Positions 32,825 to 37,945 of a stretch of DNA of 64,000 nucleotides are shown here, piece by piece. A program made the translations under genes and the position numbers. Location of the stretch: contig JAGAAJ010000002.1 in NCBI GenBank assembly GCA_017615355.1, forward strand, positions 1,646 to 65,645, written 5' to 3'. Every line of letters starts with the position of its first letter. Within the stretch, counting starts at the first letter, position 1. The notes beneath the pieces were generated by a model. It saw only the letters and a list, made by a program, of their open reading frames with translations. It did no database searches and was not told the DNA's origin. Source of the stretch: Prevotella sp. (GTDB lineage: Bacteria; Bacteroidota; Bacteroidia; Bacteroidales; Bacteroidaceae).

Positions 32825-33143
32825 CTTAATACGTATTAAAAACGCTGCAAAGGTACTAATAAGCGAGAAGAAAACCAAATTTAATTTGAGTTTTCTCGAG
32901 CGAGAGTACCTTCGGCGCAGCCAAAGGTACGAAGATGCGGCGAAATTCCAAAGGAAAATTCATCTTTGTATGATTGGTCGAGTTGTGACAGAGATTGACG
33001 TAGTTATATGCATCCTATCCATCCTGAGCGATGCTCGTTCATTATCACCGACGCTGGTTGTGATGGCAGAAATTATTGTATATCAATGGATTATATCCTT
33101 ATTCTGCGAATTGATAGAAATGGGTAAATGCAGATAAAAATTT

Positions 33144-33552
33144 TTTCCACTCAAAAATCGAAAAATAACCACAATCCATCACTTTCGCCTCTAACCTATT
33201 GTTTAACAATAGTTTAAGGAGTGATGGTTTATAGTGATGGTTATTTTAAACCATCACTTTTTCTTGTTTTTTGACAAGATTTTTAGCGTCATGAGTAGTG
33301 CTGTTCATCAAATTTTGGAGGCTCCGCAGCATAATGCGGAGGCCCCGCAGCAAATTTTGGAGCCTCTAAAATTTTGTAAAGAGCCTGTTTTTCAGAAAAA
33401 TGCAGCTGATTTTTGCCGGAAAAAATGTCAAAAATTCGGAGTGATGGTTTAAAAAACCATCACTCCAAACCATCACTCTTCAATCTACTGTATTTCAGCT
33501 AGTTGATAGCAAAAGTGATGGATTGTGGTTTATTTTCACTTTTTGAATGAAA
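33144..33552. mobile_element. MITE-like non-coding element with ~130-bp imperfect terminal inverted repeats
   Basis: 33144-33276 aligns with the reverse complement of 33426-33552; each arm carries four CCATCACT/AGTGATGG boxes; the interior holds a ggagcctcc repeat cluster; mobility is inferred. Confidence 0.65.
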
Positions 33553-33683
33553 TAAACTATCATGTCTACATCATAACAGTCAAAATGATAATATTTCTTT
33601 ACAAAGCTATTATTCCCATTCTGAAAATGCATTAGATCATTTCGGGAGTAGTGTTATTAAATGAATGGTAAATTCGCCATCCA

Positions 33684-33711
33684 AGATGCCACAGGGACGG
33701 GTGAGTGACAT
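33684..33711 (+). repeat. island direct repeat, copy 1
   Basis: AGATGCCACAGGGACGGGTGAGTGACAT. Confidence 0.9.
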
Positions 33712-33794
33712 TTTTCGCCATTCTCTATGAGAAATCCATAAGCAATGTTTTTCAGGGTTTGTGGTGCATAGATGAAGAATTTTCTACAAAATTG

Positions 33795-33824
33795 TTTGGG
33801 TTTCAAAATCTTTTTGTATTTTTG
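33795..33824 (+). promoter_or_regulatory. Bacteroidota sigma70-type promoter of the defence operon
   Basis: TTTG (33795-33798), 18 nt, TATTTTTG (33817-33824). Confidence 0.7.
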
Positions 33825-33829
33825 CAGCA

Positions 33830-34162
33830 AGTATCGCCGATACGTCGATAAATCGGCTCATGACTTCAGGTCATGTTTCCCTGAGTGCAGGGTGGCGGTA
33901 TGACTTTCGAGGAAAACAATAACAGCATTAGCTGATTATTCGGTACATCTTGAAACGTAGGAAATTTCAAAGATAGAGTAACTGATAGTCGCTAGTTCTG
34001 CACCTCAGGGTGTGGACATGACTTATCTGGTTACTCGGGCAATTCCTACGGCCTCAAGATGTAGATAAGGCGGTTCACGCCTTTTCTATGTTCTGAGGTC
34101 ACTTTGGTTTTGCCCGTCACAAATCCCGATAAGTCAGCAGTGCCTATAACTGGATATTGCTA
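33830..34162 (+). ncRNA. putative structured leader RNA / attenuator upstream of the restriction-modification-like operon
   Basis: ~120-nt rod (33944-34063), alternative ~118-nt rod (34019-34136), upstream segment complementary to the apex, terminator-like hairpin at 34067-34087. Confidence 0.6.
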
Positions 34163-35155
34163 ATGGCTAACAAGAACACAAACCTACATCAGGCAAAGGA
34201 GGCTAAAAAGGATGAGTTCTATACCCGACGTGAGGATATAGAGCGCGAACTATATCACTACCGCCGCCAGTTCGAAGGAAAGACGGTGCTATGCAACTGT
34301 GATGATCCACGTGTAAGCGAATTCTTCCAATATTTTGCTCTCAACTTTGAATGGCTTGGGTTGAAACGACTCATCTGTACATGCTATAAAAACAATGACA
34401 TTGATTTGTTTAGCCAGCACGACAAGGAACAGGCGGTATATATCATCTATGAGGGCGACAAGAACGGAAACAACCGCATAGATCCTGAAGAATTGGATGT
34501 AAAGCCGTTGAAAGGTGATGGTGATTTCCGTTCAAAGGAGTGTATCGAACTTTTAAAGCAGGCAGACATTGTGGTTACGAATCCTCCTTTCTCGTTGTTC
34601 CGACAATATGTAAAGCAGCTGATGGATTTCGACAAGAAGTTTTTGATTATCGGTCATCAGAATGCCATCACGTATAAAGAGGTATTTCGTTATATCAAGG
34701 AAAATCGCTTGTGGCTAGGCTATGGTTTCAACCGAAACTGTGCTCATTTCATCAGTCCAACCTATGAAGATACAGCAACAGATGCCGACCACAGAGAGGG
34801 GATGATTCGCGTGGCTGGAGTGATGTGGTTCACTAACCTTCATGTCAAGAAACGCGAGGAGGAAATGGAGTTCACGAAGAAATACAAGCCAGAAAACTAT
34901 CCTGAATACGAAAACTACAAAGCTATTGAAGTAGGGAAAACTCAGGATATTCCTGAAGATTATGATGGAGCTATGGGCGTTCCAATTACATTCATGACGA
35001 AATATAACCCCAATCAATTTGAACTTATTTGGACAACGGATAGAGGAGGTGATGGTATGCTTGAAGATTTGAAAAAGCCTCATACAAGATACGATGCTCC
35101 TGTAGTCAATGGAAAAGGTATGTATAAGAGAATACTTATCCGACACAAAAGATAG
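34163..35155 (+). CDS. adenine-specific DNA methyltransferase, EcoRI family
   Basis: KKDEFYT, LCNCDDP, GDGDFRS, motif IV VTNPPFSLF, MGVPITF. Confidence 0.9.
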   Translation: MANKNTNLHQAKEAKKDEFYTRREDIERELYHYRRQFEGKTVLCNCDDPRVSEFFQYFALNFEWLGLKRLICTCYKNNDIDLFSQHDKEQAVYIIYEGDKNGNNRIDPEELDVKPLKGDGDFRSKECIELLKQADIVVTNPPFSLFRQYVKQLMDFDKKFLIIGHQNAITYKEVFRYIKENRLWLGYGFNRNCAHFISPTYEDTATDADHREGMIRVAGVMWFTNLHVKKREEEMEFTKKYKPENYPEYENYKAIEVGKTQDIPEDYDGAMGVPITFMTKYNPNQFELIWTTDRGGDGMLEDLKKPHTRYDAPVVNGKGMYKRILIRHKR

Positions 35156-35161
35156 TGCCCT

Positions 35162-36271
35162 ATGGAAATGGAAATCAACTTGAAAGAAGTAACGATAGCC
35201 GAGTTATATGACGGCTATGAATACGATGAACTGAGCGACATTCTCGGTTATGGCGGTAAACTGAACATTCGCCCCGCCTTTCAGCGTGAATTTATTTACA
35301 AGCCTGCTCAGGAGCAGGAAGTCATCCGTTCCGTGATGAGAAAATTTCCTTTGAACGTGATGTACTGGAGTGATGAGGGTGATCATTATGAGCTATTAGA
35401 CGGTCAGCAGCGCACACTTTCCATCTGTCGCTATCTTGACCGTGCTTATAGCGTCGACGGTAAGTATTTCCACAACCAGCCAAAGGACATCCAGCAACGG
35501 ATTCTTAATTACAAACTGCTCATCTATGTATGCAATGGTGAACCGTCAGAGAAGCTGGAATGGTTTAACATCATCAACATTTCAGGAGAGCAGCTTTCTG
35601 ACCAGGAACGTCGTAATGCCGTATTTACTGGTCCTTGGCTGAGTGATGCTAAACGGCGTTTCTCAAAGTTGACAGGAAAAGGCGTGTTGATGGGAGCTAA
35701 CTACCTGAATGGCGATCCTAAGCGTCAAAAGTATCTGGAGACAGTTATCCAATGGGCAGCCAACAGCGACAAGGAACGTTTCAAAGGGAGCATTGATGAA
35801 TATATGGGGCAGTATCATGACAAGCCCAATGCCAACGACCTGATGCTCTATTTCCAAAAGGTCATCAACTGGGTAGAAGCCACATTCCCTAAATACGATA
35901 AACTTATGAAGGGTCTTGAATGGGGACGGCTGTATGACGAATACCATGATTTGAAAGACTGGGACACAGACAAAGCACAAAAGGAGTTGGAGCGGCTGTG
36001 GATGGATGATGACGTAACCCACAATGCTGGCGCATACGAATATGTGTTGGGAGGTGATGAGAGGGTGTTGAACATTCGTAAGTTCTCGCCGGCAATGGCC
36101 AAGGCTGCCTATACGCGCCAACATGGTATTTGTCCAATTTGCGGCAAACACTATGAATTGTCAGAAATGGAAGCTGACCACATTACTCCTTGGAGCCAGA
36201 ACGGGCCTACTAGTGCTGAGAACTGCCAGATGCTGTGCCGTGAGTGTAACAGAAGGAAGGGAGCAAAATAA
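35162..36271 (+). CDS. DUF262 (ParB/Srx-like) + HNH endonuclease
   Basis: RPAFQREFIY and LLDGQQR; C-terminal CPIC...EADHITPWSQNG...NCQMLCRECNRRK. Confidence 0.9.
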   Translation: MEMEINLKEVTIAELYDGYEYDELSDILGYGGKLNIRPAFQREFIYKPAQEQEVIRSVMRKFPLNVMYWSDEGDHYELLDGQQRTLSICRYLDRAYSVDGKYFHNQPKDIQQRILNYKLLIYVCNGEPSEKLEWFNIINISGEQLSDQERRNAVFTGPWLSDAKRRFSKLTGKGVLMGANYLNGDPKRQKYLETVIQWAANSDKERFKGSIDEYMGQYHDKPNANDLMLYFQKVINWVEATFPKYDKLMKGLEWGRLYDEYHDLKDWDTDKAQKELERLWMDDDVTHNAGAYEYVLGGDERVLNIRKFSPAMAKAAYTRQHGICPICGKHYELSEMEADHITPWSQNGPTSAENCQMLCRECNRRKGAK

Positions 36272-36287
36272 CTAAAAACAGGATACC

Positions 36288-37811
36288 ATGATAGAGAAGT
36301 GGAACCAGTTCGTATATGTGCTATGCGAAGCGAAGAAAAAGGATGTGGATGAGGACACTTACCACACGCTTATTGAGAACCAGCTGCAACTGTTGGGATG
36401 GATAATGTATAAGGGCGAGATCTGCCATAAGCCCAACATCCCCATCGGTAACAGTAAGTTTATTCAGCCTGACATTCTTGTGAAGAGTGACGGCGAAGAC
36501 CTCTTTGTCATAGAGGTGAAACGTCCTGTTCACACGCAGACGGAAAGAGAACGTGTACAGCTGGAGTCGTATATGCGTCAGCTGAAACTGGATGTGGGCA
36601 TATATATTGGTGAACACATTGAGGTGTTCTATGACAAGCCAAAGAGTAAGGATGCTGTTTCTGTATTAAGGATTCCACTTGAGATTGACAATAAGTTGGG
36701 TGCAAAGTTTGTGGAGAAGTTCAATAGGGAGCAGTTCGGCAAAGATGACATCGTGGACTTCTGCGAACAACGCATAGAGGAGATACAACGGCAAAGCAAT
36801 CTGAACAAAATCAAGGAAAGCCTGATAGCCAATGCCCAGATACAAATAGCAGAGAGCCTGAGACCCTACCTGATGGATAAATACGGCAGTTCGTTCTCTG
36901 AAGAAGAGATAAAGGGGATGTTGGCAACGATGCGTTTCACGGCCTCTGCCGAAGGTCGTCTGCCAGAAACGAAAGCTGTTGCTCCAACTCCACCTCTAAT
37001 TCCAAAGACAAATCTTATAAAATGTGTCCTGACCAGAAATGCCAATGCCAAGGGACTCTTTAACCCTGAAGATCAGTCGTTGACAGTCCTAAAAGGGAGT
37101 ACTATCAATCCTGTACATCTTGACAAGATTAGTCCTGCAGGAAGGAAGAAGCGTGATATTCTCTTTGCAAAATATACGGACTTCAGAAACGGAGAAAGAA
37201 CTGTCAAGGAAGATGTTTGCTTCGATTCGCCCAGCGGTGCAGCACAGTTCTGTGTTGGCGGTTCTTCCAATGGATGGTCTCAATGGAAAGATGAAACAGG
37301 GCAGGAACTGAATGTCTACAGGAACAACGGTAAAGCATCTTTTTCGGATACAAAAATAATCCGTTCAAAAAAGATTGTGGATTCCCATAAGATTCAACTG
37401 GATTTTTGGACAAGATTCAAGGACAAACTGAAGGCTACGAATAAGATTCCATCCTTGCAAACACCTAGGGCGCAGTATTGGTATGATATTAGGATTGGCA
37501 GACAAAACATATTGTTGTCGAATGTGTGCAATACGCTGAAGGATTTCGTTGGTGTGAAATTGTATATCAGAAAGGCCGTAGTGGATAAGTACTATCCAAC
37601 ATTAGAAGCCAGAAAGAATGAAATCAATCTTGCTCTTGGATGTGAGCCTGAATGGGATGCGAATCCTACTGCGAACGACAAGACAATAGCTCTGTTCCAT
37701 CAAACGGATTTGTCAGACCCAAGTAAGATGGAGGAAGCCCTCGACTGGCTTGTACAGCAGACCATCATCTTCTATAATGTGTTTTCGAAGGAGGTGAAGG
37801 GGATAAAGTGA
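36288..37811 (+). CDS. HsdR_N-like PD-(D/E)XK nuclease fused to DUF4357-like and DUF4268-like domains
   Basis: QPDILV...FVIEVK...QLESY; FDSPSGAAQFCVGGSSNGWSQWK; QLDFWTRF...QYWYDI. Confidence 0.75.
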   Translation: MIEKWNQFVYVLCEAKKKDVDEDTYHTLIENQLQLLGWIMYKGEICHKPNIPIGNSKFIQPDILVKSDGEDLFVIEVKRPVHTQTERERVQLESYMRQLKLDVGIYIGEHIEVFYDKPKSKDAVSVLRIPLEIDNKLGAKFVEKFNREQFGKDDIVDFCEQRIEEIQRQSNLNKIKESLIANAQIQIAESLRPYLMDKYGSSFSEEEIKGMLATMRFTASAEGRLPETKAVAPTPPLIPKTNLIKCVLTRNANAKGLFNPEDQSLTVLKGSTINPVHLDKISPAGRKKRDILFAKYTDFRNGERTVKEDVCFDSPSGAAQFCVGGSSNGWSQWKDETGQELNVYRNNGKASFSDTKIIRSKKIVDSHKIQLDFWTRFKDKLKATNKIPSLQTPRAQYWYDIRIGRQNILLSNVCNTLKDFVGVKLYIRKAVVDKYYPTLEARKNEINLALGCEPEWDANPTANDKTIALFHQTDLSDPSKMEEALDWLVQQTIIFYNVFSKEVKGIK

Positions 37812-37870: not shown

Positions 37871-37921
37871 ATGAAGAACTATGAAGAAAAGATACTAGAT
37901 GCCACAGGGACGGGTGAGTGA
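37871..37921 (+). pseudogene. possible truncated gene start terminating inside direct repeat 2
   Basis: TATCTTTG box at 37852-37859 and an A-rich leader, then MKNYEEKILDATGTGE*. Confidence 0.35.
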
Positions 37922-37945
37922 CATCCTATAGGTATGACGTGAGGT
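37897..37945 (+). repeat. island direct repeat, copy 2 (28-bp core plus 21-bp extension)
   Basis: AGATGCCACAGGGACGGGTGAGTGACATcctataggtatgacgtgaggt. Confidence 0.9.

Follow-up and report, generated by a model that had tools for sequence, protein, structure and literature searches.

Phage immunity RNAs as the closest described systems

The CI RNA of phage P4 has a size of about 79 nt and, like the c4 RNA of phage P1, is processed out of its transcript by RNase P and accumulates. The differing specificities of P1 and P7 c4 are set by short complementary segments. P4 immunity, as outlined in PMC4825925, is based on an untranslated leader whose central antisense segment matches an upstream and a downstream target, and a small RNA processed from this leader, CI, is presented there as the proposed trans-acting trigger of termination. 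The outline given in PMC8546580 describes P1 c4 as a processed 77-base RNA that acts in trans. A third case is IsrK/SeqA of Gifsy-1, where a leader-derived small RNA targets, in trans, the long transcript it stems from and shifts this transcript between two structures (as far as PMC4825925 outlines it).

The leader described here was found in a 64,000-nt stretch of a Prevotella genome (denoted as the window). Its promoter type and its named homologues likewise point to a host in Bacteroidales. Compared with the seqA-CI-seqC arrangement of P4, to the extent that this is laid out in the account cited, it shows the same predicted layout, and its central stalk has a similar size.

Anatomy of the leader

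An earlier note on this DNA had described a multi-state leader RNA in front of a defence operon. The boxes of the Bacteroidota promoter that it placed at 33795-33824, ahead of the MTase start codon at 34163, are indeed found. The same is true for its helices 33944-53/34054-63, 33956-63/34043-50, 33976-82/34030-36, 34019-27/34128-36, and 34036-42/34110-16, and for the hairpin 34067-83. It missed fold C at 34010-34080 and the hairpins presenting the cores c (33951-69) and c' (34037-54). The parts of the locus are as follows.

33795-33824, + strand: promoter of the Bacteroidota type; boxes TTTG (33795-98) and TATTTTTG (33817-24), which we take to be the -33 and -7 elements
33830-33905, + strand: optional 5' multi-hairpin module (z -2.9)
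33860-33922, + strand: uORF of 20 codons, ATG 33860 to TAA 33922; present, not conserved
33924-33933, + strand: segment a, a small conserved hairpin (identity 0.80)
33944-33990, + strand: upstream target (seqA-like), made up of arm b, core-c hairpin, arm d, and segment e
33956-33963, + strand: core c, displayed by the small hairpin 33951-69
33997-34016, + strand: hairpin at the apex of rod A, with a 3' strand that doubles as the 5' strand of fold C
34010-34080, + strand: fold C, a stalk of about 72 nt displaying d', the c' loop, and b'; the part predicted to be released as a CI/C4-like antisense RNA
34037-34054, + strand: c' hairpin with an 8-nt loop complementary to c
34067-34088, + strand: local hairpin (34067-83) and U-rich tract; predicted termination site
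34084-34136, + strand: downstream target (seqC-like), the partner in fold B
34136-34161, + strand: hairpin touching the start codon (-9.0 kcal/mol)
34163-35155, + strand: EcoRI-family adenine MTase (PF13651, E 7.6e-131; PADLOC MTase_II)
35162-36271, + strand: GmrSD_N plus HNH type II restriction endonuclease (PADLOC REase_II, E 1.5e-114)
36288-37811, + strand: DUF4357/DUF4268 protein, PDC-S11/S14-like

Measured against dinucleotide shuffles, the whole leader folds with a z-score of -8.35, rod A with -6.9, and fold B with -8.6. Fold C reaches -23.7 kcal/mol (z -2.7) and pairs the 3' strand of the apex (34010-17) with 34073-80, and 34022-28 with 34063-69. The 5' module is separable from the remainder of the element: in the same genome it also occurs alone, heading an unrelated gene as well as a sibling leader on contig C122, and it is missing from most homologues.

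The surroundings of the leader are rich in repeats. The promoter block of about 50 bp (33780-33830) recurs at some ten other places in the genome ahead of unrelated genes, one of these copies (on contig C81) heading what is presumably a cobalamin-riboswitch-like leader. Just 5' of the promoter lies an AT-rich, palindromic, MITE-like element of about 470 bp (33115-33610), with six near-full copies in the genome, one of them also ahead of the C122 leader. A 28-bp direct repeat (33684-33711 and 37897-37924) flanks the promoter, the leader, and the three-gene operon. As a third copy follows about 1.3 kb beyond and more are located on contigs C11, C128, and C84, these copies may represent a dispersed repeat and not a pair of att sites.

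A large RNA family in Bacteroidota

The element is a member of a real, large, and uncatalogued RNA family. BLAST detected it in 17 of 150 genomes from the host's family. A search with one exact pattern yielded 120 loci in genomes and another 15 on viral contigs; the number in the whole collection is estimated at about 830. These loci belong to Bacteroidales, Chitinophaga/Pedobacter/Dyadobacter, and Kiritimatiellia, apart from a few bins that bear other labels. With a stricter pattern, 13 of 400 further genomes from the order were hit. Of 100 genomes searched within the genus, 60 contained the element according to a covariance model, with up to eight copies each. For the homologue set used below, two short loci, the truncated L027, and all loci lacking an HMM match or an anchor were removed first; the remaining 153 loci were then reduced to 124 at 90% identity. 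From the 169 model matches of the genus search, 100 originating from multi-copy genomes were taken as a second set. The host genome harbors seven copies detectable by HMM (one truncated), and in addition the C122 sibling leader (L002:1630-1850, at G000:C122:20150-20370). The latter is divergent in sequence, shows the same rod, a 77-nt stalk, and a U-tract, and fronts an MTase-like gene behind the shared 5' module. In another variant (G000:C63:32100-32340) a long insertion separates c from c', and the rod is still formed.

The earlier note recognized no named family here, and this stands: cmscan against Rfam (E-value mode) returned nothing over the element in the window, no match for the sibling leader, and none near the gathering score in 20 homologue loci and the seven loci of the host genome. 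In the openly accessible literature searched, the family is undescribed, and motif searches came back blank in the supplements of PMC7366714 (all but file 9) and of PMC8040213 (all but files 7 and 8, possibly alignments).

In 90 of 122 homologues a -7 box is located 50-175 nt upstream; in reversed orientation it is seen in 13, and of the gene-internal controls 3 of 92 have it. A co-oriented ORF follows about 60 nt 3' of the element in 106 of 124. Upstream neighbors are mostly housekeeping or accessory genes, not mobility genes. Mob_Pre is encoded upstream at 6 of 86 loci, and at 6 of the 10 viral-contig loci scanned the leader follows a Mob_Pre gene. One family copy is located just after mobV at a plasmid cargo position and another in a small integrative element. 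The window's island contains no integrase gene, and the element in the window had no BLAST match among plasmids. Plasmid pBUN1 (NZ_AP019725.1) carries an unannotated family member (L208:8001-8197) between mobV and blaMUN-1. At loci L053 and L055, the leader precedes a His-Xaa-Ser system gene (hxsD at L053), 3' of a Mob_Pre relaxase gene.

Two mutually exclusive folds

In a structure-free alignment of 35 close homologues, 21 of the 32 base pairs of rod A show two-sided changes, in line with the fold A proposed earlier. Such changes are seen at 13 of the 24 pairs of fold C in a MAFFT alignment (A1), and at 21 of 24 in 94 distinct new sequences (A2), an out-of-sample alignment that was itself fitted to C. 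Covariation is also seen in 119 of 124 homologues at the stem that closes the c' loop (ACC with GGT in 70/70, GCC with GGC in 49/49, five others); it is independent of rod A, which does not explain it. Comparative evidence hence shows two mutually exclusive, covarying predicted folds, rod A and stalk C. G-U pairs exceed A-C pairs (24 vs 7), which favors the sense strand and points to the + strand RNA as the folded species.

Fold B, the alternative state put forward earlier, covaries at three of seven tested pairs, and its cognate pairing is among the best 5% in 25 of the 35 members of the subfamily as compared to 10 of 84 homologues outside. The claim of a conserved, cis-linked leader with several states is upheld by the covarying folds A and B; yet B is a feature of the subfamily, and the family-wide alternative to rod A is fold C. 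In the subfamily, the start-codon hairpin reaches -4 kcal/mol or lower in 19 of 26 members. Fold C closes in 119 of 124 homologues with a median of 74 nt, and c' is unpaired in all 119; a regex-based search alone recovered the stalk in 89 of 124. At least four T within the 8 nt after the stalk are found in 106 of 119 homologues and in 98 of 100 elements of the second set. In 38 of 119 homologues, the strand that precedes the U-tract can pair with the region 5' of c, which makes a predicted antiterminator.

Folding models assign different ranks to these states. In a lone transcript, rod A is folded before the 3' strand of the stalk exists, and in the window copy it is also the more stable fold (-95.1 vs -83.0 kcal/mol), so that fold C would need a blocker. 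Rod A dominates the modelled free leader in all 98 of 98 cases of the second set. When 119 homologues were refolded, stalk C appeared in 4 free leaders and in 71 with the upstream target blocked, and the stalk or the local hairpin in 47 and 102, respectively. An earlier run, with a smaller block and downstream sequence included, gave the stalk in 64 of 124. According to these models, blocking the upstream target would let stalk C or the local hairpin form at the U-tract. For the window copy, the modelled probability of stalk C is 0.03 in full 5' context with only b-c-d blocked, and 0.44 in shorter context with b-e blocked. A clear switch in start-codon accessibility between the modelled states was not seen.

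The local hairpin, AAGGCG/CGCCTT, had been proposed as a switchable terminator, a view that is not maintained: in the window model it coexists with rod A (P 1.0), and it is not a family-wide feature. A local hairpin is predicted in the free state for 43 of 119 homologues. Since it is modelled to form together with rod A, the default state of the window copy may already be partly terminated. A further proposed interaction, between 33870-90 and the apex, does yield a duplex of -29.5 kcal/mol in the window (p 0.03 vs shuffles), but p ≤ 0.05 is reached in only 10 of 119 homologues.

Loop cores and variable arms as barcodes

The cores c and c' occur in about 20 different versions, complementary in 98 of 100 elements compared with 24 when partners are shuffled. 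Arms b and d are hypervariable (identity 0.35 and 0.27), in contrast to the apex and the c hairpin (0.76-0.88). Sequence comparison shows complementary cores, each in its own predicted small hairpin, and variable arms that stay complementary throughout their divergence. In interaction models, folded C binds its own folded target with a mean of -8.1 kcal/mol and other targets with 0.0; the own target is the best of nine for 97 of 119 elements, and the modelled 7x7 matrix of C segments and targets of the host genome's copies is diagonal. One of these copies, on contig C39, has the core of the window copy but different arms.

Complementarity between cognate parts is expected from rod A alone and is thus no proof of action in trans. 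Among pairs sharing a core, cross-reaction occurs in 14 of 102 co-resident pairs and in 27 of 500 from different genomes (17 of 336 for all co-resident pairs). Co-resident copies cross-react no less than others, and selection against cross-talk is thus not apparent.

Genes behind the leader

The proposed link to defence, specifically to restriction-modification (RM), is confirmed. Among the 106 of 124 elements of the first set with an ORF to scan, the first downstream gene encodes an RM MTase or another RM subunit in 36 (26 by Pfam, 10 more by PADLOC). In the second set, where the N-terminal approximately 150 aa were scanned for 95 elements, 35 first genes are defence-like (29 RM, five SNF2 helicases, and one PglW). 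Other first genes code for secreted or surface proteins, lipoproteins, acyltransferases, LRR proteins, HxsD, a beta-lactamase, and many unknowns. The downstream arm is associated with RM genes in the first set (25/37 vs 11/65) and more weakly in the second (23/48 vs 12/47, p 0.03); relatives are not independent of each other.

Relation to described RNA families

The leader resembles P4 CI and P1 c4 in its predicted anatomy and is not a member of their family: topology, hosts, and genes differ, and Rfam models, those of C4 and its relatives included, do not match. As in these systems, the leader contains an antisense segment that matches a target lying further upstream within it, and as in P1/P7 c4 (RF01695) the targets reside in upstream hairpins. 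The self-folding stalk of about 75-85 nt that exposes the antisense segments has its counterpart in fold C, while the second target near the first gene is present in the window copy and most of its subfamily, and seldom outside. The c4 stalk carries two inner hairpins in the description of PMC2864571; fold C carries one apical hairpin with two variable strands beside it. The same description lists c4 for Proteobacteria and phages, whereas the leader family is found in Bacteroidota and Kiritimatiellia. The genes under c4 control are antirepressor genes. The family also differs from P4 in that no sequence match exists, that many barcoded copies occur per genome, that only some subfamilies possess a downstream target, and that RM, surface, and other cargo lies downstream instead of phage antirepressor or replication operons. 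IsrK, in the account of PMC4825925, is a 5' terminated piece that activates translation in trans, and it shares no sequence match with the leader family.

Other classes are more distant. Metabolite riboswitches have a conserved ligand core and coherent genes; here, the cores vary freely and the genes are unrelated. OMEGA/HEARO RNAs adjoin an IscB gene and match Rfam, neither of which applies: the guided_IscB score is 25 bits, with a cut-off of 175.

A proposed self-addressed antisense attenuator and its alternatives

In the models stalk C does not form in cis unless the upstream target is blocked or removed, yet it is conserved; it displays the very strand that would block this target on a second molecule, and it is flanked by two targets. 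On these grounds a trans-acting processed RNA is proposed: the central RNA of about 72 nt would be released, bind the upstream part of new transcripts, and attenuate the MTase-nuclease operon in the manner of P4 CI, a reading to which we assign a probability of about 0.5. Terminated transcripts would be cut at or near the apex loop, yielding the C RNA. This RNA would kiss the c loop of the next transcript and then zip along b and d, and its binding would force termination and thereby produce more C RNA. In a newly entered cell devoid of C RNA, a burst of cargo expression, MTase first, would last until the loop closes. Copies bearing other barcodes would be controlled separately.

A depth peak over the apex, seen when L113, a widespread homologue, was compared with public runs (contigs only), was considered as a sign of the small RNA and rejected. 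It is 20-58-fold in three metatranscriptomes and recurs, at about 2- to 28-fold, in four runs whose kind was unrecorded or guessed, and is read as a collapse of many copies because the short shared contigs have foreign loose ends.

The same anatomy could serve a switch acting only in cis, the main rival explanation, which is plausible and on balance unlikely. Here, c and c' would kiss within one molecule, with no diffusible RNA. The choice among A (read-through), C (termination), and B would fall to pausing, to an RNA-binding protein, or to 5' decay. All covariation can come from pairing in cis, co-resident copies show no excess orthogonality, and in the model the equilibrium fold moves from A to B once the transcript passes 34100-34120. 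The scaffold sequence is conserved enough for recognition by a protein. Such a switch is countered by the early completion and greater stability of rod A, which leave C in need of a blocker, and a protein blocker would have no need for some 20 interchangeable cores or a separately covarying c' hairpin.

A ribosome on the leader peptide could also be the blocker, covering the upstream target so that translation stress switches the fold, as the uORF of the earlier note implied. This uORF is present and ends beside segment a, similar ATG frames occur in L025, L026, L040, and the C122 copy, and 15 of 53 ORF stops fall on a TAG in the c loop. As a conserved trigger, however, it does not hold: the frame is missing from L071, which is the closest homologue; among 91 homologues with a promoter, 55 contain no ATG-initiated ORF of at least 8 codons; and an in-frame ATG 5' of the c loop is found in only 17 of 122. 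The stops are scattered, and the TAG, which had been part of the pattern searched for, is absent from many cores. No conserved uORF overlapping the switch, as expected of leader-peptide attenuators, was thus found among the homologues, and this mode of control is improbable.

Attenuation of the plasmid type by an antisense RNA from the opposite strand, for which the window offers a -7-like box on the minus strand (33968-75), is very improbable, such a box being found, at scattered positions, in no more than 15 of 124 elements of the first set and 9 of 100 of the second. Slightly less credible still is a noncoding RNA that serves the HNH/GmrSD nuclease as a guide or an antitoxin, a partnership that the earlier note had also suggested. 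The nuclease genes adjoin the leader and the HNH part is weakly similar to IscB and Cas9d, a likeness confined to HNH and far under curated cut-offs; but most downstream genes are not nucleases, the same element fronting methyltransferases as well as the varied cargo listed above, and the variable arms match the element itself. An attC-like hairpin or mobile-element end acting as DNA, which would fit many copies ahead of unrelated genes, can be dismissed almost entirely given the strand bias to G-U, the upstream promoter, the U-tract, and the co-oriented ORF.

Implications for the timing of acquired genes

How MTase and nuclease are timed on entry into a host by RM systems without C proteins is referred to as an open question in the account of PMC3695507. 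The leader, present in 60 of the 100 genomes of the genus, offers a concrete RNA-only candidate for such a timing mechanism. Were it to act in cis only, it would still constitute a large family of three-state leaders without an Rfam model. If a released C RNA does act in trans, the family would provide a natural set of orthogonal RNA regulator-target pairs for Bacteroidota, and a circuit of Proteobacterial phages would be extended to defence and surface cargo. Tentatively, Bacteroidota may reuse an RNA circuit of the phage-immunity type as a general, barcoded timer for acquired cargo that requires no protein regulator. If this is true, RM and surface cassettes would burst in a naive cell and then be turned down independently of each other, each by a private repressor of about 72 nt whose address is composed of one of some 20 loop cores and two free arms.
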